A stretch of 64,000 nucleotides of DNA, taken from positions 1 to 64,000 of IMG/VR virus record IMGVR_UViG_3300044981_000152, one strand, 5' to 3'. Shown piece by piece: positions 3,701 through 59,965 of the stretch. The first letter of the stretch is position 1. Each line of letters begins with the position of its first letter. Source of the stretch: a virus. The position numbers and the translations under genes were made by a program. Below the pieces are notes generated by a model. It made no database searches and was not told the DNA's origin. It saw nothing but the letters and a program-made list of their open reading frames with translations.

Positions 3701-4876
3701 ATGACCTACCTCAGCAGGACCGCCAAGCTCGGGATCGCCGCCGAGGCGACCGCCAGCCAGTACACCGCGCCTGTCTTCACCGTCCCGTTCCTGCCCGGCG
3801 CGACCCGGTACTCCGATCACATCACCCAGCTGTACGACCGGACCGCCCGCGCCACCGACACCGATACCCAGGACATCCAGCAGGGGCCCTGGTGGTCGGC
3901 GTGGCAGGTCACGTCCGACTGTTACGCGGACTGGGCCGGGTTCCTGTACCGGGCCCTGGTCGGCCCGGACACGTTCACTCCGGGCACCTCGACAACGTTC
4001 GCCCAGCCGTCAGCGGCCGGGGCGGCGTCGGTGTACCTCGCCGCCCCGCCGCCGGCGGGCGCGGTCATGCAGCTCGGCTCGGGCACCGCCCTTGAGTGGG
4101 CGCAGACCGGCACGCCCTCCGGATCCGGCCCGTACCTCGTGCCTGTCACCAGCCCGGTCACGGGCCTCCGGTTCGGCCACGGCGCGGGCGATCCGGCCCT
4201 GTCCCGCGCCACCCACGTGTTCACCCAGCACCGGGTCATCGGCCAGGCGTGGCCGTCGTACAGCTTCACCAGCGACGACGGGACAGAATCGCTCGGCTGG
4301 CCGGGCTGCTTCCTCGGCGAGGCGCGGCTGCAGGTCCGGCACGACGCCTGGGCGAAGCTGGTCTCCAAGTGGAACGGGTGGCCGCCCGCCGCCGCGGCAA
4401 CCTTCACCGAAGCCGAGACGGGCGCGCAGCCGTTCGCCGGATGGTCCTGGCAGGTCACCACCGCCGGCGGCACCTCGACCCGCGGCGTCGACCTGGACCT
4501 GGCGCTGGCCCGGAAACTCCAGGTCACCCCCGCCTGCAACGGCTACCAGGGGCCGTACTTCATCGGTGCCGGGCCGCTGAACGCATCGGGGTCATACTCG
4601 GCGATCTTCGGCACGACCGCCGACCTGAACCTGTACCGGCAGGCCATCCAGGAGCCGGCGGTCATGACGCTGGCCCAGCCGGTGCTGCAGGGCGGGTCGT
4701 CGATCGCGGTCACCGCGTCGCTTACCGGGTGGACGCAAGGCGAGGTCTCGCTGGCCGGCGACTACGTGACGGCCAAGTTCAGGTACAGCGGGATCGCGAA
4801 CACGACGGATTCGCCATTCGCCGGGGTCGGCAGCGTAGTCGTCCAGAACTACTATCAGGCCGCATATGGCCCCTGA
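3701..4876 (+). CDS. Tail tube-like protein, paralog 1
   Basis: Shares DIQQGP, LRFGH and NGYQGPYFIG motifs collinearly with 5573-6844. N-terminus LGIAAE.T...Y is tube-like. Confidence 0.7.
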   Translation: MTYLSRTAKLGIAAEATASQYTAPVFTVPFLPGATRYSDHITQLYDRTARATDTDTQDIQQGPWWSAWQVTSDCYADWAGFLYRALVGPDTFTPGTSTTFAQPSAAGAASVYLAAPPPAGAVMQLGSGTALEWAQTGTPSGSGPYLVPVTSPVTGLRFGHGAGDPALSRATHVFTQHRVIGQAWPSYSFTSDDGTESLGWPGCFLGEARLQVRHDAWAKLVSKWNGWPPAAAATFTEAETGAQPFAGWSWQVTTAGGTSTRGVDLDLALARKLQVTPACNGYQGPYFIGAGPLNASGSYSAIFGTTADLNLYRQAIQEPAVMTLAQPVLQGGSSIAVTASLTGWTQGEVSLAGDYVTAKFRYSGIANTTDSPFAGVGSVVVQNYYQAAYGP

Positions 4877-28211: not shown

Positions 28212-30755
28212 TTACGAGGCCTCGACGTCCGCGGGGGCCTCGTCGAGCAGGTCGAACAGCGCGGGCACCGAGGCCTCACTCGCGGCACCCTGGACGTAGG
28301 CAGCGCCATCGGCGAAGTAGCGGGGGCTCAGCTCGACGCCGACACCGCGGCGCCCGGCCTTGACCGCGCAGTAGGGGACCGTCCCGATGCCCATGAACGG
28401 GTCGAACACCGTCTCGCCCGGCATTGAGTAGCGGACGAGCAGCCGGTCAACGATGTCGAACTGGATCGGGCAAAGATGCTGTTCTTGCCCCTTGCGCTCC
28501 TGGAGCATGTTCAGGGTGCGCATCCGGGCGATATCGGTCCACGCGTCGGGGTGCCAGCTCGGCGGCTGCAGCAGCATGAACCCGGACGGCAGCCGCCCTT
28601 TACGGTCAAGACGCTCGCCGATCGCGACGTGCTGCTCATAGTCGTAGACACTGGCCAGGTAGTGATCGCGGAAACGGCGGAAGATCTGCTGCGCGGGAAG
28701 ATTCTCCAGTTCCTCGGGCAGCAGCGGCCTGTTCCCGCTCGACCGCCAGAAGCCGTGAGCGTCAGTCTGCCAGCGGGCCCGCGAGTACTCGCTCTTGCTC
28801 TTGACCACGGGGACGTCGGCGTAGCCGTCTGAGTTGTCGGTCGGCGGCTTGCGCCATAGCAGCACGTACTCCGGGCATCCGACGCCCATCTTGGAGCCGT
28901 CCTTGCAGTTCTCGGTCCACCCGAGCCGGTAGGTCTGGTTGTTCTCCCGCACGACATCGGTAATGACGGGGATCATCCCGAGCGGCGCGAACCCGTGCTT
29001 GGCGTAGTGGGTGATCGCTTCGGCGTGGAAGTACTGGACCGTCTGGAAGCCGAGCCCCGTCAGGCCCCCCGGAGTGATCCGGTCCTTGACATGGATCGCG
29101 GCCACGCGTCCAGGTGCAAGTACGCGGAACAGCCCGGGAGTCAGGAAGTCCATCTGCTCCCAGAAACGGGAATTGTCCTCGTTATGGCCGAAGTCGTTAT
29201 ATGACGGCGAATACTCATATTGAGTGCTGAATGGTATGGACGTAACAATTAGGTCCACGCTTGCCGTTTCCATCGCGGCGGTTTCGAGTACCGCATCGTT
29301 GTTTACGAGCCGGTAGCTGCCGCCGCTGATCTCGCGTCGTTGTACCCCGATTGACCTGGTAAAACCTCCCGAGAGTGCGTCTCTGGCCAAGCCGCGCTCG
29401 CGGATGATCTCGCCCATCCTGGCGACCAGATCGTCATGCTGCTGCCACTTGCGCTCAAGCTGCGCCCGGATGCCGCGCTCGGCGTCGCTGTAGATGATGT
29501 CGATCCGCACCGGCTCCGTCTGGAGGAAGCGGTGGATCCGGTGGATGGCCTGGATGAAGTCCGCGAACTTGAACCCGATGCCGGTGAAGACCGCGCGGTG
29601 GCAGTAACGCTGGAAGTTGCATCCCGAGCCCGCAATTACCGGCTTGGTCGACAGGACGTTGATTTTCCCGTCGCTGAAATCGATGATCCGCTGCTCGCGC
29701 TCGTCGAGGTCCTGGGAACCCCACACCGCCACGGAATCGGGAACCGCCGCCGCGATCGCGCGCCGCTCGTCCTCCAGGTCGTGCCACAGCAGGAAGTGAT
29801 CATCGGGCGACTCGGCCACGAGCTCCGCCGTCTTCGCAACCCGCGCATCAAGGCTGGTGCGCTTCTCGGCTGCGGCCTCCTGGACGCCGAACGTGGCATC
29901 CCTGAACATGAAACCCTGGCCGTCCTTGTGCTCGCCCGCGCCGAAATACGGCGCCAGCGGCGACGGAACCTCATGCCAGCGGACGTCGAGCGGCGGCAGC
30001 TCGTAGCCCATGTCGTCGTGGCCGAGATCGGAGGGGCGGTTCAGGAAGAGGGCCCACGAGGCGATCCAGGCCCAGAACTCCTCCTCCATATGAGGATGCA
30101 GGGTCAGGTTGTCGGCCTTGGTCGAGTCGCGCTTGAAGAACCGGGTCCGGGCCTGGCCGACGTCCATGATGTCCAGGAATGCCGCGTAGGCGAGCAGCTC
30201 CTCGTACTCGTTCGGGCTCGGCGTGGCCGTGGCCACGAACCGGTAGGCGGAACTACCCTCGTACAGCCGCATCAGCTCGCGGAAAGTCTTTGTGCCGCCG
30301 CGGCCGCGGAGTATCGCCGCCTCGTCGAGCGACACGACGTCGAAGCCGCGCGGGTCCAGCTTCCCCTCGCGCACCGACTCGTAATTCGTGATGTAGATGC
30401 CATCGGCCGAGGCCTCGGCCGATGTGCGGATGAACTGGGTCTCGACGCCGATCAGCCGGGCGTCGCGGGCGAACTCCTGCCGGACGCCGAGCGGGCAGAC
30501 GATCAGGCCGCGGCCGGCGCCGAGCTTCCCGGCGATCAGTCTGAGCGACTCCAGTTGCACCAGGGACTTGCCGAGCCCGAAGGAGGCGAACCAGGCGCGA
30601 CGGCCGCCGCTGACACCCCACAGAACCATGTCCCGCTGATGCGGCTTGAGCGCCGGGTGCACCTCGTCCGGGCCGACGTCGAGGCCTGTAGACGTCGCCA
30701 GCCGGGCCTTGGAGTCCAGGAACGCCCGGTAGCTGAGCGCTGGCCCCTCACCCAT
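28212..30755 (-). CDS. SNF2-like helicase fused to a beta-class N4/N6 DNA methyltransferase
   Basis: Helicase motifs FGLGKS, LDEAA, ATATP and QAIHRIHR. MTase motifs DLIVTSIPF (IV) and FDPFMGIGT (I). AGGAGG-6nt-ATG at 30755. Confidence 0.9.
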   Translation of the reverse strand: MGEGPALSYRAFLDSKARLATSTGLDVGPDEVHPALKPHQRDMVLWGVSGGRRAWFASFGLGKSLVQLESLRLIAGKLGAGRGLIVCPLGVRQEFARDARLIGVETQFIRTSAEASADGIYITNYESVREGKLDPRGFDVVSLDEAAILRGRGGTKTFRELMRLYEGSSAYRFVATATPSPNEYEELLAYAAFLDIMDVGQARTRFFKRDSTKADNLTLHPHMEEEFWAWIASWALFLNRPSDLGHDDMGYELPPLDVRWHEVPSPLAPYFGAGEHKDGQGFMFRDATFGVQEAAAEKRTSLDARVAKTAELVAESPDDHFLLWHDLEDERRAIAAAVPDSVAVWGSQDLDEREQRIIDFSDGKINVLSTKPVIAGSGCNFQRYCHRAVFTGIGFKFADFIQAIHRIHRFLQTEPVRIDIIYSDAERGIRAQLERKWQQHDDLVARMGEIIRERGLARDALSGGFTRSIGVQRREISGGSYRLVNNDAVLETAAMETASVDLIVTSIPFSTQYEYSPSYNDFGHNEDNSRFWEQMDFLTPGLFRVLAPGRVAAIHVKDRITPGGLTGLGFQTVQYFHAEAITHYAKHGFAPLGMIPVITDVVRENNQTYRLGWTENCKDGSKMGVGCPEYVLLWRKPPTDNSDGYADVPVVKSKSEYSRARWQTDAHGFWRSSGNRPLLPEELENLPAQQIFRRFRDHYLASVYDYEQHVAIGERLDRKGRLPSGFMLLQPPSWHPDAWTDIARMRTLNMLQERKGQEQHLCPIQFDIVDRLLVRYSMPGETVFDPFMGIGTVPYCAVKAGRRGVGVELSPRYFADGAAYVQGAASEASVPALFDLLDEAPADVEAS

Positions 30756-30813
30756 CCCCCGCCTCCTGCTCGCTGCCGATCCTGACCTGACCGATCCGGT
30801 CCCTGCGGTGCTG

Positions 30814-32235
30814 TCAGCAGACAGCATGGTCGTATCCGTCTGACCGCTGGACGATCCGGCAATAGCGGTAGCGCACTCCATCTCGAGTGCCATCGCGGGC
30901 GACGATCCGGAAGTCGCCCCTGGTGCGGACAACTACGCGGCCGAGGTGCGACCCAGCGCGCTTGGGGGTACGCGCCCGCACCAGGTCTCCGGTCTGGAAG
31001 CCGTGGACCTGCTTTACCCGCGGCAAGCGCGTTCGCGGGAAGCCGTAAGCGTCGGTGCACGTCCGCTTATGCGTCCCGCGCCCGGTTGCCCTCACTGCGT
31101 ACGTGGCTGCAGTCCCGGCTCCGCGAAGCTGATCCACCTCACCGCAGCACGCGGCATCAAGGGCGTGAGACTTCGGTGTCCCGGTCCGGTGCCTGTTCCA
31201 TTTGGTGCGGGCGCCGGTCCAGCATTCGACGGCGACACCTAGGCTGCGCAGGGCGACGAGACAGGCGTACTTAGTGGAGTTCACCGCTGCCGCATCGCGC
31301 AAAGGAGCCTTGGCCTGCGCGAGGATTTTCGCGAGCCGGGCAGCGTCCGTCACGAATTCCCGTACGGGCATGCTGCCCTTTGCCTGGTTGCACGGGATAC
31401 AGGCCAGGGTGAGATTAGAGACCCGGCTGCTCCCGCCACATGAGCGCGGAACAATATGGTCAATGTTCAGCGGGACGCCTGCCGCATCGCAGTAGGCGCA
31501 CTTCCGGCCCCACTTCTCCAGCAGGTACTCGCGTGCCTCGTACCCGGCAAGTTCCCCCTGCTGGTATTCGGTGCCGCTGATCTCTGGGTTCTGCATGGCC
31601 TGCATGTCAAACCGGACCAGCTCCAGGTCAATCACGCTGACCGGGCACCAGTGCCGGAGTCGCCGCGCCCACGTCTCGACATGCTGAACGCGAGACCGCA
31701 GCGACGGCGCCAGCCAGCCCTTCGGCCTAACGCGGTTGCTGAACCTTGGCGGCCGGTAGCGCAGGTTTGACGACCGCCGCCGCCGCCGGTATCCGGCGCG
31801 CTGCTGCATTCTCTTGTGAATCCCGGCGGACCTATGGGTGATCTCCAGCAGCGCGAGGATGTCGCGGGCGCCGCCGAGTTGGCGGGTAACCGCCATCCCG
31901 GTTGCCTTCGAGCCTGGATCCACGCCGAGGCGAACCGCCCGGCCCGAGCGCAGCAGGGCGCGAGCGCGAGACGGATGGCACGGCATGAGCGGGTTACCCC
32001 GTTTGTCGAGCACGAACACCCGACGGACTCCCCTCGCGGGGGTAACGCCAGCCTTACGGCTGGTCTCCTCTCGGCCATGTTGCGCTCGCGCCCCTCGCGG
32101 GAAGCCGGGTGCCTTTCGGCCGCGCCGCCCCGTTTCGTGCCCACCCCTGGGGTTGTCTGCTGACGGCGCTTCGAGGGTCCGGGGCTGAGGAGGCACCCCG
32201 GAGTCGGTCTTCTGTCCTGCCTGCAACGTAGTCAC
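30814..32235 (-). CDS. iscB: IscB RNA-guided endonuclease (alternative start GTG 32019)
   Basis: VFVLD..G.PLMPCHP.RAR (PLMP), DPGS (RuvC-I), RRRRR..LRYR..RF.NR bridge helix, ELVRFD (RuvC-II), CAYC..DHIVP..N...C..CN (HNH), SHALDA (RuvC-III), GFQTGD. Confidence 0.97.
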   Translation of the reverse strand: MTTLQAGQKTDSGVPPQPRTLEAPSADNPRGGHETGRRGRKAPGFPRGARAQHGREETSRKAGVTPARGVRRVFVLDKRGNPLMPCHPSRARALLRSGRAVRLGVDPGSKATGMAVTRQLGGARDILALLEITHRSAGIHKRMQQRAGYRRRRRSSNLRYRPPRFSNRVRPKGWLAPSLRSRVQHVETWARRLRHWCPVSVIDLELVRFDMQAMQNPEISGTEYQQGELAGYEAREYLLEKWGRKCAYCDAAGVPLNIDHIVPRSCGGSSRVSNLTLACIPCNQAKGSMPVREFVTDAARLAKILAQAKAPLRDAAAVNSTKYACLVALRSLGVAVECWTGARTKWNRHRTGTPKSHALDAACCGEVDQLRGAGTAATYAVRATGRGTHKRTCTDAYGFPRTRLPRVKQVHGFQTGDLVRARTPKRAGSHLGRVVVRTRGDFRIVARDGTRDGVRYRYCRIVQRSDGYDHAVC

Positions 32236-32288
32236 CTCCTAAGCGACTCGGCCTGGTAACTGATGTAAAGGTCACGGGGATCAGTTAC
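32030..32288 (-). ncRNA. omegaRNA (HEARO-like) scaffold of IscB
   Basis: 5' stem GTAACTGAT...ATCAGTTAC followed by CAG, CTACGTT, CCGGGGTGCCTCCTCAGCCCCGG and AACATGGCCGAG, as in IscB omegaRNAs. The 3' end is approximate. Confidence 0.9.
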
Positions 32289-32317
32289 GTACTCCGCTAT
32301 CCGGTCGCCAGCCGCGG

Positions 32318-32554
32318 TCATGCGACCTCCCCTGCGCTCGGGCCGAACTGCTCGGCCTTCAGCCGGTCGACGTACGCCTCGCACTCGCTCATCGGTATGC
32401 GGCGCTCCTGCGGGCCCAGCTCCAGCTTGCGGACCTCGCCGGCGCGCAGGAGCTTGTACAGCTTCGACAAGGACACGCCGATCTTCTTCGCCGCCTCCTT
32501 GTAGGTGAGCATCAGCGGCTCGCCCACGTCGCGTTCGGGGTACTTGTTGCCCAC
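32318..32554 (-). CDS. xis: Excisionase (HTH_17/MerR-like)
   Basis: LTYKEAAKKIGVSLSKLYKLLRAGE....G..RRIP, divergent from the integrase. Confidence 0.85.
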   Translation of the reverse strand: MGNKYPERDVGEPLMLTYKEAAKKIGVSLSKLYKLLRAGEVRKLELGPQERRIPMSECEAYVDRLKAEQFGPSAGEVA

Positions 32555-32668: not shown

Positions 32669-34054
32669 ATGAGCGATGCACCCAGGACGCGGAGAGCCAA
32701 TCTGGAGTCGTGGACCAGCAGCGAGCCGAACGCCCGCGGCTACTACGAGGCCAAGGTCTGGATGGGCTTCAAGGCCAGCGGCCAGCCCGACCGGCGCCAC
32801 ATCCAGCGCAAGACCCTCGCCGCGGTACGCAAGCGGGTCCGCGAGCTGGAGCGGATGCGGGACAGGGGCGCGGTCGGCCAGTCCGGCAAGGTGCCCACCG
32901 TCGAGGAGATGCTGACCCGGCACCTGACCGTCGTACTCGTCCAGCGCGGCCGGGCCCCCCGCACGATCGCGGACTACTGGTCTAAGTGCCGCAACGACAT
33001 CTTCCCGCGGTGGGGCGGCCAGCGGGTCGACCGGCTGCGCCCGGAGCACATCGAGGACGGCCTGGCCGCGATGCTCGACGAGGGCCACGCGCCGTCTCAT
33101 GTCCGCAAGGTGCTGGCCATCCTGTCATCGGCGTACGAGGTGCAGGCGAAGCGGGCCGCGGCCTACGGGATGGCCGGCGGGACGACGCTCACGAACCCGT
33201 GCCGGTTCGTGGAGCCGCCCGAGCTCGGCGAGGCGAACCGCAAGTCACTCACCCGCAAGCAGGCCCGCGCCGTCCTGGCCGCCGCGCGGGGGCGCGGCCA
33301 GTTCGCCCGGTGGGCGGCCGGCCTCAGCCTCGGGCTGCGGCAAGGTGAGGTGCTCGGGCTGCGGTGGCGGTTCATGGACATCGACGTTCCCGGGGGCGAG
33401 CAGGGCGAGGCGCGCGTCTGGGCGCAGCTCCAGCGGCTCACCTGGGAGCACGGCTGCGATGACGCGCACGCCTGCGGGCGCAAGTACCACAAGACCCGGC
33501 CGTGCCCGGCGAAGTGCTCACGGCACGCCCGCGCCTGCCCGCCGCCGTGCCCGGACGGCTGCGCGGACCACGCGCGGCACTGCCCGAGGCGCAAGCTCCC
33601 CCGCGGTTCGGTGCGGCTGAACGGCGCGCTGGTGCTGCGGGAGACGGTCAAGGAGAAGAAGCGCAAGACCGTCCCCGTCTACCCGGAGGTGTGCGAGGTG
33701 CTGCGCGAGCACCGCTCGGCCCAGTACGAGGCGCGGATGCTCGCCGGGTCCGAATGGACGGACTACGATCTCGTCTTCTGCCAGTGGAACGGCTCGCCGG
33801 TCGACCCGCGGCGGGACTGGCAGGAGTGGGCCCGCATCCTCGAGGCCGCGGGCATCCCGCACGCCGGGGTCCACGCCGGGCGCCACACCGCCGCGACGAT
33901 CGCCATCGGCGAGGGGGCCGCGCTTGACGCGGTGCAGGATCTGCTCGGCCACGCCGACGCGAGGACTACGGCGGGTTACGTCCACACTGCCTCGCCGGCC
34001 GCCAGGAGCGCCGCGAGGGCGGTCGGCCGGGCCCTGTTCGAGGGCGACGACTGA
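32669..34054 (+). CDS. int: Tyrosine integrase with a Cys/His-rich insertion
   Basis: GLRQGE, HAGRH, LGH and TTAGY catalytic motifs. TACCAT-7nt-ATG leaderless start. Confidence 0.95.
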   Translation: MSDAPRTRRANLESWTSSEPNARGYYEAKVWMGFKASGQPDRRHIQRKTLAAVRKRVRELERMRDRGAVGQSGKVPTVEEMLTRHLTVVLVQRGRAPRTIADYWSKCRNDIFPRWGGQRVDRLRPEHIEDGLAAMLDEGHAPSHVRKVLAILSSAYEVQAKRAAAYGMAGGTTLTNPCRFVEPPELGEANRKSLTRKQARAVLAAARGRGQFARWAAGLSLGLRQGEVLGLRWRFMDIDVPGGEQGEARVWAQLQRLTWEHGCDDAHACGRKYHKTRPCPAKCSRHARACPPPCPDGCADHARHCPRRKLPRGSVRLNGALVLRETVKEKKRKTVPVYPEVCEVLREHRSAQYEARMLAGSEWTDYDLVFCQWNGSPVDPRRDWQEWARILEAAGIPHAGVHAGRHTAATIAIGEGAALDAVQDLLGHADARTTAGYVHTASPAARSAARAVGRALFEGDD

Positions 34055-56116: not shown

Positions 56117-56539
56117 TCATGAGCCGTACCCCTCGATCGCGTTCCGCTCGGCCCGCTGCGTGGCGCCGATGCTCCGGCAGGTGTCCCAGTCGTCCTTCAG
56201 CAGGCGGAGCACTTCCTTCGCCGCGTCCAGCTCAGCCTTAAGCGCGTCGGCGGCGAACACAGCCCCCGCCGCGGCGAGGCGCGACGCCTGGTCTCGCTGC
56301 TGCTGCGGCCCGTCGGCGGACATGAACTCCTCGGCCCGGACGATCGTGGCGACCTTGACCGCCTCGGCGACATCGGTCTGGAGCTGCCGGATCTCCTCGA
56401 TCTTGTCCCGTCGCATCCGCTGGATCGCGACCATCACCTGGGCGATCTCGCGCGGGCCCAGGTCTTCCGCCTGCCGCCCGCGCGGATGCTCGCCGGGCGA
56501 CAGGATGCGCTCGATCGCGACGGCTTCCAGGGTGGTCAC
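56117..56539 (-). CDS. Helical hypothetical protein following recT
   Basis: GTGA overlap with recT. Coiled-coil-like. Confidence 0.7.
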   Translation of the reverse strand: MTTLEAVAIERILSPGEHPRGRQAEDLGPREIAQVMVAIQRMRRDKIEEIRQLQTDVAEAVKVATIVRAEEFMSADGPQQQRDQASRLAAAGAVFAADALKAELDAAKEVLRLLKDDWDTCRSIGATQRAERNAIEGYGS

Positions 56540-57462
56540 GCGGGCTCGCTCCCCGGCACGAACCCCTCCGGCCAGCCGTCCTCCGGGGTGCTCCTGGCGG
56601 GGTTGCCGAGGTCTTCATCCGCTGCGTCATCATCAGCGACCTGGCCGGGCAGCACGCGGGGCGGCCGCTCGGTCACTTCCCCGGCGTTCGCGGTCGGCGT
56701 GAGGTCGACCCGGATGCCGTTGTCCGCCTGCATCGCGGTGACCATCTCGGCGGACTTCGGGAGCAGCGCGAAGTTCCGCAGGATCATGGTCTTCTTCCCC
56801 ATGGGCAGGAAGTGGTCGGTCCAGGGGCCGACGATCTTCCCGTTCTGGTTCCGCGGCGCATGCCTGTCCCGGTGCTGCTGCATCTCCTCAACTGACCAGG
56901 GGTCGGTGAGGGAGTAGCCGCCGCCGATGACCCGGGCGACCGAGTAGAAGCACACCGGATCACCGTGCAGGCCGCGGTAGGAGGGCTTGTGCAGGAGCTT
57001 GTCGCCGTCCTCGTGGAACTCGATGTCGAACTCTTCGCCCTCGTAGACGACCCGCGACGCGATCCCGGCGAGCTTGCCCGACCGGTAGCCGAGCTCGATG
57101 TACCCCTTGTAGCCGACGACGAGCTGGGCGCGATGCCGGCGCTGGGCGTTGTCCCAGTACGGAAGCGGCCACGCGTGCCCGAGACTGGCCACGCCGGGCC
57201 GCAGGTCAAGCTGGGCGCACGTCATCAGCGACCCGAGGAAGCTTTCCGGGTCGCACTTGTCGAGGTTCTTGATGGTCCGCAGGCACGTCATCGCGTCGCG
57301 GACAAGCTGGGTCGCCTCGCGGCCCTTCGGCATGGCCGCCTGGAATTCCGGGGTCATCCGCTCAAGCTGCTGCGCGAGCGTCCTGACCTGCTCGGGCTCG
57401 GAGCCGTTCCCGTTGCTGCCGTTGCGCTGGGCTGCTGCCCGCGCGGCTAGTTCTCGTCCCAT
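56536..57462 (-). CDS. recT: RecT-family single-strand annealing protein
   Basis: C...S.LGSLM.CAQL.L.PG..LGHA...P, GYKGYIEL..RSG, GPW..HF..M.KKT. Confidence 0.95.
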   Translation of the reverse strand: MGRELAARAAAQRNGSNGNGSEPEQVRTLAQQLERMTPEFQAAMPKGREATQLVRDAMTCLRTIKNLDKCDPESFLGSLMTCAQLDLRPGVASLGHAWPLPYWDNAQRRHRAQLVVGYKGYIELGYRSGKLAGIASRVVYEGEEFDIEFHEDGDKLLHKPSYRGLHGDPVCFYSVARVIGGGYSLTDPWSVEEMQQHRDRHAPRNQNGKIVGPWTDHFLPMGKKTMILRNFALLPKSAEMVTAMQADNGIRVDLTPTANAGEVTERPPRVLPGQVADDDAADEDLGNPARSTPEDGWPEGFVPGSEPA

Positions 57463-57464
57463 GG

Positions 57465-58442
57465 TTACGCATCCCCCTTGAGCGTGACGTTGAACTGGCG
57501 GAATCCCTTGTCCGTGACGACCTCAGCGGCCACGTCGGGATACTTCTCGCGCAGGACCGCGATTCCTTCCTTCGGGACGCTGGTCTTGCTGCGGTTCGCC
57601 CACCGGGCGACGGTCTCGCCCTCGTACGTGGCCGTCCCGGCGTCGCCCATGGCGGCGGTGATGAGCGCCTTGATCTCGTTCTTCCGGCCCTTGGCGGCGC
57701 TCTCGTTGGCGAGCTCCTTGCGGTACTCGCGCAGCAGGGCCACGTCGGCGGCGGACAATTCCGCCGTCTTGCCGTCGTCCGCCTCGGGGTACAGGCGCGC
57801 GATCAGGTCGGCCGACGCGCGGCCTTCGAGGGCGGGCGGGGTGCGGGCCTCGACCAGGTGCCAGAACTCTTCCTCGCACGCGGTCAGGTCGGCGATGAAC
57901 GCCTCGTCCCGCTCGATCCGGCGGATGACCGGGGGCTGCCCGCCGACCTGCGCGGCCAGCCATGCGTGCGGCAGGCCGGTGACCGCCATGGCGTGCTGGG
58001 CCTGCGCCTCGGCGCCGTCGGCGACGATCTCGCCCTCGCCGTCTTCCCACTCGCCGCGGCGGTGGTAGTTCGTGTTCTTGATCTCCAGGATGCCGCCGTC
58101 GGCCGTGAGCCGGTCGACGGACACCCGCTGCCACGTCCGCTCGGCGTGCTGCATGAGCCCGCAGCGGCGGGCGCTGACGCCGGTCTTGAACGTGAACCAC
58201 TCGGCGATGGGCCCCTCGACGTAGTTGCCCCAGGCCATGCCGTCGGTCTGCTCGCGCTCACCCCGGTCGTCGCCGGTCTTGTCGAGGTAGACCTCCATGC
58301 GGGTCTTCCACGGGTCCAGGCCCAGGACCGCGAGGGCGTCGCTGCCGCCGATGCCGTCCCGCCGCAGCCTCAGCCACTCCTCGCGGGGCGTGTCGTAGCG
58401 GGCCACCAGGATGCCGGCCGGCGTGACCTTGCGCCCGGTCAT
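57465..58442 (-). CDS. YqaJ-like (RecE/lambda-Exo type) exonuclease
   Basis: WL..RR.GIGGSD...LG..PW, SVDR, LEIK, Q.QH.MAVTG. Confidence 0.93.
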   Translation of the reverse strand: MTGRKVTPAGILVARYDTPREEWLRLRRDGIGGSDALAVLGLDPWKTRMEVYLDKTGDDRGEREQTDGMAWGNYVEGPIAEWFTFKTGVSARRCGLMQHAERTWQRVSVDRLTADGGILEIKNTNYHRRGEWEDGEGEIVADGAEAQAQHAMAVTGLPHAWLAAQVGGQPPVIRRIERDEAFIADLTACEEEFWHLVEARTPPALEGRASADLIARLYPEADDGKTAELSAADVALLREYRKELANESAAKGRKNEIKALITAAMGDAGTATYEGETVARWANRSKTSVPKEGIAVLREKYPDVAAEVVTDKGFRQFNVTLKGDA

Positions 58443-59965
58443 GACGCACCGCCTGCGGCTGCCCGACCCTCGGCCGACGTGAGCACCTCGGCCAGGGGGG
58501 ATCTGCCCGCGGTGACGTACGCCGGGTCGATCTCGCGGGTCACGAACTCGGCGAAGCGGTCCGCGTCGTCCTTGCCGTCCACGATCCAGGCCGCGACCAC
58601 GCGCTGGAGCTTGGCGGCCTCGGCGTACCCGATCTGCCACGCTTCCTCGGCCACGTGGCGGGCCATGACGGCAGGGTCGGGATGGGTGCCGCGTTCCACG
58701 GCGAGGTCCAGCTGGAAACTCGCCGGGCCAGTGTGCGAGGTCTCGTCGCCGGGCCGCGCGCCGCCGGTCAGGATCACGACGTACTGGCCGCTCATGCCGC
58801 TGTCTCCCGGTCGTTCCGGGGCTCGCACCCCGGGAACACGCGGATCAGCTCAGCCGTCCAGTACGCGACGTGCTCAGCGGCCCGCTCCAGGGCCGTGTGC
58901 AGCGCCTCCGGGTCACCCTTGAGGTCGTCCCATTCGGATGCGGGGTGGATGAGGTCACGCGAGAGCGCGTCGTACAGGTCCAGGGCGTCCTGCAGCGCGC
59001 CGGCCTCGGCCTTCGCGGCATCGCGGACGCTGGCGGGCCATTCGGGGCTGGTGGCGCGGGCGAGGACCAGGAGCCCGTACGCGACGGTCTCGCGGCGGCA
59101 CTCCGGGGTGATCGCCCCGGTCCCGTTGATGATCATGCTGCCTGCCCCTCCCGCCGCCGTTCGGCCTCCACCTGGTGCATGGCGAACGCGATAGCCCGGC
59201 GTACCCCGACGGCGGTCTCGTCGAGTTCCTCGTGGATGCTGCGGCGGGCCTTGCGGACGTAGGCGTGGATGTCCTCGTACCACCCGTCGCGGATGTCCTG
59301 CCCGAACCGCAGCCATACCGCGTCGTCGCCCGCGTACAGGACGACCCCGGTGCCGGGACGCTGCCCGTACTTGTGGTAGTCGCACCGGCACGGCGGCTCC
59401 GGCTCGGGGGCGGGGCTGCCGGTGACGGCCAGGAACGGTCCCGTGTGATGCTCGGCGTAGCCTCCCGCCATCGCTGCCGCGTGCTGCGGTACCGGCACGG
59501 CCGGGTACTCGTGCGCTACTTCCGGCAGGGGGACGAGCACGCCCGCGGCGGACACGGCACGACCCGCGGCCGGCGTCGTCGTGCGCGCGGAGCGGAACCG
59601 GCGGGGCCTGCGGCGGCTCATGACGCCGCCTGCCCGGTGAGCGCGGCGAACGCGGCGTCATGGTCGGGGGTGTAGTGCGCGTCGACGGTCAGCGACTCGC
59701 CGTCCTGGGTCCACCGGCGCTGGGCGAAGTACGTCTCGTTGCGGAAGTCCAGCGGGACGCCGAGCCAGTCGGCGATGGCCTGCGCTTTCGCGAGGCGCTC
59801 GGCGGGGGTGCCGTCGGCGATCTTGATGCTGATGACGGCATCGAGCTTGGGCCGTCCGTCCGGGTGGTTATCCCAGTAGGCGGAGACCTCGGCGAGGACG
59901 ATGCTGCCCCCGGAGGTCCCGTTCCCGGTCGCGAGGGACTTCTCGCGTTCAGTCAAGCCGATCAT
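58439..59965 (-). CDS. Four small early genes (58439-58795, 58792-59136, 59133-59621, 59618-59965)
   Basis: ATGA-coupled chain downstream of cro. Confidence 0.65.

Follow-up and report, generated by a model that had tools for sequence, protein, structure and literature searches.

How an RNA-guided nuclease element can come to lie inside another gene while that gene stays intact is the question raised by a locus in the virus record IMGVR_UViG_3300044981_000152 (99,220 bp, judged complete), of which positions 1-64,000 were analyzed here and are called the window. On the minus strand of this window, a gene encoding a fused helicase and DNA methyltransferase is divided by an IscB element, which consists of an omegaRNA and iscB and is a non-autonomous member of the IS200/IS605 superfamily. 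The element lies 33 bp (11 codons) inside the original 5' end of the gene, and a second, different start adjoins its far edge. An earlier note, written from the letters of the window alone, had proposed that the arrangement is a natural RNA-guided gene drive. The analysis instead favors, at a probability of about 0.5, a non-autonomous ISC-type element that brought the second start along with it and is now an immobile, nuclease-impaired relic.

A gene with two starts

The layout described in the earlier note holds at every coordinate on the minus strand: the two gene starts with their ribosome-binding sites (RBSs), the tyrosine codon TAC that finishes both junctions (32291-32289 and 30731-30729), and the start of the omegaRNA scaffold. 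The orphaned start, or leader 1 (MTAAGDRIAEY), opens where the xis-like gene upstream ends in GCATGA, the TGA stop of which overlaps the orphan ATG at 32321 as ATGA. After MTAAGDRIAEY this frame continues as VTDPRDLYISYQAESLRR, runs into non-coding sequence and ends at 32232. The substitute start, or leader 2 (MGEGPALSY), has its ATG at 30755, six bases after AGGAGG (30767-30762), and is followed by RAFLDSKARL, where the gene body resumes. The encoded protein is intact and full length (847 amino acids, 98-100% covered by 120 homologues), and its expression very probably continues from the substitute ATG at 30755.

Which of the two starts is native can be judged from the homologues, a set of 119 other listed alleles that are 69-87% identical to the window's gene, the closest being P0002-P0010 (82-87%). 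In an alignment of 23 homologues, the junction tyrosine is invariant. Native N-termini of the leader 1 type, including MTAEDRIAAY-RAFL, MSAETRIAEY-RQFL, MTTTGERIAAY-REFLDSKARLATSTGLD and MSTAGERTAAY-REFLDSKARLATSTGLD, are found in helicase-methyltransferases that are 70-87% identical to that of the window. The match of the orphaned start to these N-termini is not due to chance, because the motif [DE]RI[AEGL][AE]Y appears only once when the window is read in all six frames, at the orphan start. Alleles of this type are likewise the best match for the body over its first 30 residues, with 24/30 identities to P0010 (MSTAGERTAAY) and 23/30 to P0008 and P0009 (MTTTGERIAAY). Leader 1 and the body best match the same alleles, and therefore leader 1 joined to RAFL is taken as the native gene and leader 2 as the intruder. 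At the DNA level, homology with two element-free alleles (L247 and L105) begins at the TAC at 30731 (TACCGGGCGTTCCT); the former, at 76%, was the one useful allele from 401 genomes of the order containing Streptosporangium. On the evidence of these homologous N-termini, the orphaned start is the ancestral N-terminus of the gene, and the ancestral join MTAAGDRIAEY-RAFLDSK that had been suggested is supported.

Leader 2 weakly resembles the way in which other alleles of this gene begin; natural leaders of other homologues include MTEPALPY, MAEPAISY and MTALSY. It is absent from all 119 other listed alleles, and an N-terminal search of 5.8 billion proteins returned only the window's own protein and P0010, with no second carrier of leader 2. 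The 58-nt tail downstream of iscB, together with leader 2, has no match in any fetched locus. Among the 160 helicase loci fetched, none has the window's xis or integrase, and none has a full-length IscB adjoining the gene; one (L044) has a distant 89-residue HNH-type match downstream. In viral contigs, no match was found to a degenerate DNA pattern for the DRIAEY/RAFLD junction, and the xis protein has no relatives there. A metagenome scan for helicase alleles returned at most 73% identity among the matches listed.

The leader before the invariant tyrosine is hypervariable in P0002-P0120, from 3 to ~45 residues, and is doubled in P0053 (MTTT…MTTT). The gene start may be a site of recurrent rearrangement.

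The omegaRNA and the ends of the element

The HEARO family of IscB omegaRNAs (RF02033) matches full length at 32288-32104 with 43 bits (E=5e-7). The gathering score of 83 is not reached, as is likewise the case for 7 of the 13 relatives scanned. The match begins exactly at 32288, directly after the leader 1 tyrosine codon, and iscB thus has directly upstream, in the same orientation, a HEARO-type omegaRNA that begins at the terminus of the element. This 5' terminus, (C)GTAAC, is common to related elements. In translation, the omegaRNA region has 84-87% identity with P0122 and P0125, and the protein is 76-80% identical in that alignment.

In the published system, the omegaRNA is at the right end of the element, the target-adjacent motif (TAM) is beside the left end (Meers et al. 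2023), and the guide is the flank outside the scaffold bounded by the right end (Meers 2023). By its position relative to the HEARO match, the 5' flank that now abuts the scaffold, orphaned leader 1, would be the guide, as had been proposed. No other target for this presumed guide was found in the 99-kb record.

The first stem of the omegaRNA, P1, is a perfect 9 bp (32288-32280 / 32264-32256; GTAACTGAT / ATCAGTTAC) with a 15-nt loop. That loop has no inner hairpins, of which the Rfam model and the relatives have two at this place (CCCCnnCC-loop-GGnnGGGG). In the 58-nt tail 3' of iscB, a family-type hairpin was sought by folding (z=-0.6) and by comparison with the tails of relatives, and none was found. 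The subterminal hairpins for a Y1 transposase are accordingly missing from both ends, and the 99,220-bp record contains neither a gene for such a transposase (tnpA) nor a second copy of the element. The record scan, the fold and the comparison with relatives bear out what had been noticed of the absent tnpA, the absent right-end hairpin and the short loop of the first stem. With neither TnpA hairpin left and tnpA absent from the record, the element appears to be stranded, and its transposition is unlikely.

The IscB protein

The protein has the composition expected of an IscB, with a PLMP N-terminus, a split RuvC domain, an arginine-rich helix and an inserted HNH domain, the PLMP domain being shortened. 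Alignment with solved IscBs in the PDB shows that the D, E, DH/N and HxxD catalytic motifs of RuvC and HNH are present. After residue 28 (in the DNA at about 31936/31935), 22-24 residues of the PLMP domain have been deleted in frame, judging by position from its C-terminal part; among ~215 relatives, no other IscB has this deletion. The missing stretch, A-V-H-R-R-x-P-F-T-I-R-L-K-D-R…V-Q-P, is kept in all nine of the closest relatives (P0122-P0130, 65-74% identity by BLASTP), in 116/117 proteins and at 97/98 loci. Truncation of PLMP abolishes nicking by IsrB, for which the guide-adaptor hairpin SL1 is dispensable (Hirano 2022), and mutations in PLMP motifs lower cleavage by IscB. By analogy, the window's IscB is probably impaired as a nuclease. 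An AlphaFold model of the protein was set aside, its predicted local distance difference test (pLDDT) score of 44 being too low for an assessment of the shortened PLMP domain.

Past the TGA of iscB, its frame stays open for 21 more codons (30750-30816, minus strand) with ~90% GC in third positions; the TGA that closes it overlaps the ATG at 30755. The ancestral IscB may have had a longer C-terminus, of which this extra frame would be what is left.

Related elements at start codons

The relatives surveyed were 80 IscB loci of 50-58% identity taken from genomes and ~35 from viral contigs; an alignment-based scan of viral contigs for the IscB subclade returned relatives of at most 55% identity. 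Multiple copies within a genome define an element length of ~1.7 kb. The 5' end of related elements is the omegaRNA terminus. The 3' end is made up of a GC-rich hairpin, a TCCACG-like box and often a Shine-Dalgarno (SD) sequence, and after 5-8 bases ATGA, GTGA or ATGG follows. In ~75 related elements, the hairpin and, often, an RBS precede RTGR (R being a purine), which is the start codon of the host gene. All 40 elements with defined ends finish with RTGR (33 ATGA, 6 GTGA and 1 ATGG), with an SD sequence just upstream in 24, and the copies in viral contigs show the same architecture at the 3' junction. The open reading frames (ORFs) beginning at these RTG codons are real gene starts, as TssK, MiaB, GuaB, IspE, PriA, PcaG and HisC align from about position 1-3 of their profiles. 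Such alignments are preferred to a test of the start-codon rule by ORF length (80% versus 49% in the control, p=7e-5), which is weak in high-GC DNA. The N/ATGA and GT/GR targets of ISC2 have been published (Kapitonov, Makarova & Koonin 2016, PMC4810608).

Elements were found base-exact before the starts of tssK, miaB, guaB, ispE, priA/hisA, pcaG and hisC (L182, L204, L206, L213, L221, L241 and L180), which are conserved genes and in several cases housekeeping ones, and actinobacterial copies have GGAGG or AAGGAG 5-8 nt upstream of the host start codon. That this IscB clade lands on the start codons of often essential genes, with the RBS supplied in actinobacterial copies, explains how insertion is tolerated, and deserves explicit description even though the target motif is published.

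Because related elements often carry an SD sequence and then abut a host RTG start, supplying translation signals downstream is a habit of the family and not an invention of the window copy. The replacement start supplied by the element, as the earlier note had it, is thus borne out in that a different start does adjoin the element, but such supply is routine among relatives. The AGGAGG-N6-ATGG of the window, with its ATG at 30755, is the same type of junction, and the ATGG of leader 2 fits the RTGR of the family. What is unusual in the window is that the upstream flank of the element consists of 11 codons of the gene rather than an RBS and spacer, and that homology to the host gene resumes only at 30731, 27 nt past the family-type junction. 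In the inferred native allele, the leader 1 flank joins CGGG.

Origin of the present arrangement

In the favored reading, the first 11 codons of the gene would have stayed upstream, fused to the omegaRNA scaffold and serving as its guide. Translation would now proceed from the strong RBS, the ATG and the eight codons at the 3' edge of the element, rejoining the frame at the invariant tyrosine. The 27-nt leader 2 most likely came with the element and would probably be the beginning of a different allele of this gene, before whose ATG the element may once have sat in the canonical manner. Recombination would then have carried the element and leader 2 into the present allele, and the right junction could be the product of simple homologous recombination in the conserved gene body. 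Both TnpA hairpins and the 22-24 PLMP residues have been lost, probably leaving an immobile, nuclease-impaired relic stage. The copy is most likely a relic of past insertion or recombination, and it fits the late stage of the selfish-nuclease cycle of invasion, fixation and decay. The junctions might also have arisen if TnpA had cut aberrantly, 27 nt past the left end, or if a linear fragment had been end-joined.

Several points weigh against this account. Simple homologous recombination does not account for the precise left junction at the element terminus, and the proposed origin of leader 2 draws on a weak similarity to ALSY-type leaders (p roughly 0.05 by the analysis's own estimate). The evidence of decay is also mixed: the RuvC and HNH catalytic motifs are all intact, the P1 stem is still a perfect 9 bp, and the omegaRNA core is highly conserved, more so than the protein. 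The protein has 10 unusual substitutions at otherwise invariant positions, where its relatives range from 1 to 16. Only part of the PLMP domain is deleted, without a frameshift, and the effect is judged from the truncation of IsrB. Finally, RTGR is the TAM of the relatives examined and may not hold for the subclade of the window's IscB.

The likeliest of the alternatives, though still unlikely, is ordinary TnpA insertion into an allele that already had a 20-residue tandem leader, MTAAGDRIAEY-MGEGPALSY. Insertion would have taken place before the in-frame ATGG, with the 3' boundary at 30756/30755, and the hairpins and part of PLMP would have been lost later. The empty site would read …GCGGAGTAC joined to ATGGGTGAG, and the pre-insertion allele …AEYMGEGPALSYRAF…, as opposed to …DRIAEYRAFLDSK… if leader 1 joined the body directly. 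Under this model, AGGAGG-N6 followed by ATGG is exactly the family architecture, with ATGG also used as a target in L176, L269, L274 and L279, and the (C)GTAAC terminus is a complete family end. The range of leader lengths in the gene family (3 to ~45 residues) and the one homologue with a doubled MTTT…MTTT are compatible with it as well. However, no homologue has both leader types in tandem, either among the 119 listed or in the search of 5.8 billion proteins, and the alleles closest over the next 30 residues join a leader of the first type straight to R-x-F-L. An unrelated 27-nt insert exactly between the tyrosine and arginine codons would have to have existed beforehand. The arrival of leader 2 from another allele is thus favored over a tandem-leader allele, albeit without a mechanism for the left junction.

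Active homing without TnpA, which is what the gene drive of the earlier note amounts to, appears quite unlikely for this copy. It would have the orphaned leader guide IscB to cut …GAGTAC/CGGGCG in co-infecting phages, after which RecT and its exonuclease would copy in the element and its start; the empty site would read …GCGGAGTAC joined to CGGGCGTTC. In favor of such a model, the ancestral junction is spelled out by the guide, for which the phage offers no other target, and the insertion itself protects its carrier, immunity following from the anatomy. IscB has intact catalytic motifs and a conserved omegaRNA core, and the missing hairpins are consistent with an existence independent of TnpA, SL1 not being needed for cleavage. 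Recombination of the RecET type, which had been invoked for copying, is available in the RecT and YqaJ-type exonuclease encoded at 56536-58640. The concept also has precedent, as a role for IscB and TnpB as RNA-guided homing-type nucleases is published (Meers 2023) and co-infecting phages have been suggested before as targets of homing (PMC13565253).

The difficulties lie in the target, the nuclease and the distribution. The TAM was expected to match the bases after the empty junction, but the bases after the predicted junction are CGGGCG, the CGGG of which is at odds with RTGR, the TAM throughout the relatives examined; the TAM of IsrB is NTGA (Hirano 2022). The nuclease activity on which the proposal depends is predicted to be impaired, by analogy with IsrB, by the loss of the 22-24 PLMP residues. 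Spread between co-infecting phages had been envisaged, yet no leader 2 allele was found elsewhere (119 listed alleles; 5.8 billion proteins), and hence there is no sign of it; nor did the same insertion recur beside empty alleles in related genomes (119 alleles, 160 loci and 5.8 billion proteins). How the first such unit formed is also left unexplained. The orphaned start as guide, the substitute start and the lost hairpins can therefore be retained from the original proposal, while the misfit of CGGG as a TAM and the PLMP deletion tell against a drive, and RNA-guided homing is not favored for the window copy.

A broader version of the same idea, in which a whole IscB lineage has dispensed with TnpA, is very unlikely. 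Such a lineage would have shed its hairpins, carried a portable 'exon' of RBS, ATG and leader, and spread between co-infecting actinophages by guided cutting and RecT copying, and the TAM would need to have moved from RTGR to the bases after the conserved tyrosine codon. Highly improbable, finally, is domestication of IscB as a phage weapon or regulator that cuts or binds rivals or prophages with an uninterrupted helicase start and does not copy itself: the ORF is open, the catalytic motifs are intact, the guide matches a type of sequence common in related phage alleles and domestication of TnpB relatives is known (PMC10705468), but the TAM and PLMP objections to a drive apply equally, nothing else in the record is a target of the guide, and the locus has been seen once, so that there is no conservation to indicate selection.

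If the copy were active after all, it would be a natural phage gene drive that brings its own gene start and so tolerates life inside a coding region, with a bearing on the persistence of OMEGA nucleases without transposases and on phage engineering. As it stands, the locus is a well-resolved case of an IscB element splitting a gene start without killing the gene, at the stage of decay expected of selfish nucleases.

Comparison with known systems

The closest parallel in architecture is provided by the ISC2 transposons (PMC4810608), which likewise have a single iscB with RuvC and HNH domains, a conserved 5' terminus, RTGR directly after an RBS at the 3' side and no target duplication, and are non-autonomous. 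The window element differs in that its subterminal hairpins are gone and its 3' boundary, as defined by the gene, is 27 nt past RTGR; it also lies 11 codons inside a gene rather than before a start, and is a single copy. As regards mobility, the record has this one copy, and the element-free alleles known are proteins or distant loci only.

In ISGst5 (2023, bioRxiv 10.1101/2023.03.14.532601), as in the window, the omegaRNA is upstream of iscB and bounded by the transposon end, and the guide is flanking DNA. There, however, the element adjoins the TAM TTCAT (ATGAA in the sense of iscB) and has kept ends on which TnpA can act, whereas the predicted empty site of the window has no such TAM and the ends of the window element are degenerate. 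In the same work, iscB is rarely linked to tnpA (~1.5%), and the role proposed for the nuclease is to cut sites without the element, which recombination would then restore (bioRxiv 10.1101/2023.03.14.532601).

The free-standing homing endonuclease genes of phages, SegF and Mob (PMC13565253), are similar in that a selfish nuclease gene lies between conserved phage genes. Their intronless homing is accompanied by co-conversion, and flanking markers dragged along in this way could explain the foreign 27-nt leader; their expected life cycle ends in degeneration after fixation, as in the reading favored here. In the window, recognition would instead be by an RNA guide, a gene is interrupted and needs a new start, and homing is putative.

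With DtIsrB and OgeuIscB (PMC9581776, PMC9640706), the window's system shares the domain order PLMP, RuvC, bridge helix, HNH and TI, and an omegaRNA with a guide-adaptor stem and pseudoknot. The 22-24 PLMP residues and the inner hairpins of the adaptor are absent in the window.

Organization of the locus

Features of the split gene, the element and their surroundings, with positions in the window
Feature	Coordinates	Strand	Evidence
Helicase/N6-N4 DNA methyltransferase gene body, resuming RAFLDSKARL	28212..30728	-	Pfam PF01555; homologue coverage
Substitute start, leader 2: ATG GGT GAG GGG CCA GCG CTC AGC TAC (MGEGPALSY)	30729..30755	-	Sequence; family 3' junctions
58-nt tail 3' of the iscB stop, ending AGGAGG (30767-30762) and six bases	30756..30813	-	Fold z=-0.6; comparison with relatives' tails
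iscB, 401 aa, likely start GTG 32019	30814..32019	-	Pfam RRXRR 7e-56, HNH 5e-10; PDB IscB matches
omegaRNA scaffold	32020..32288	-	HEARO RF02033 match 32288-32104
Orphan 29-codon frame, leader 1 into scaffold, TGA stop	32232..32321	-	ORF list
Presumed omegaRNA guide, 16-20 nt 5' flank adjoining the scaffold (GCGACCGGATAGCGGAGTAC)	32289..32308	-	Position relative to HEARO match
Original RBS GGAGGT (32330-32325) and leader 1 (ATG 32321 to TAC 32289, MTAAGDRIAEY)	32289..32330	-	Sequence; homologous native N-termini
xis-like excisionase (HTH_17)	32318..32554	-	Pfam PF12728, E=1.8e-6; sequence
Tyrosine integrase (lysogeny module context)	32669..34054	+	Pfam PF00589
RecT and YqaJ-type exonuclease, the phage's own recombination pair	56536..58640	-	PF03837 127 bits; PF09588 95 bits

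Other viral IscB elements

Several viral contigs have two IscB elements each (L258/L261, L259/L260, L268/L290 and L281/L304), and these elements thus do multiply within phage or prophage genomes. In one viral contig (L287, IMGVR_UViG_3300035102_000153, ~4266-4330), an IscB gene runs directly into AGGAGG and an ssb-like gene start (MSFNKVIMAGRLTKEPE), without a left-end hairpin; this is apparently another stranded phage copy. A tRNA gene (L003:2918-2990) was seen downstream of the IscB element in a small viral contig, at a distance of a few hundred bases.

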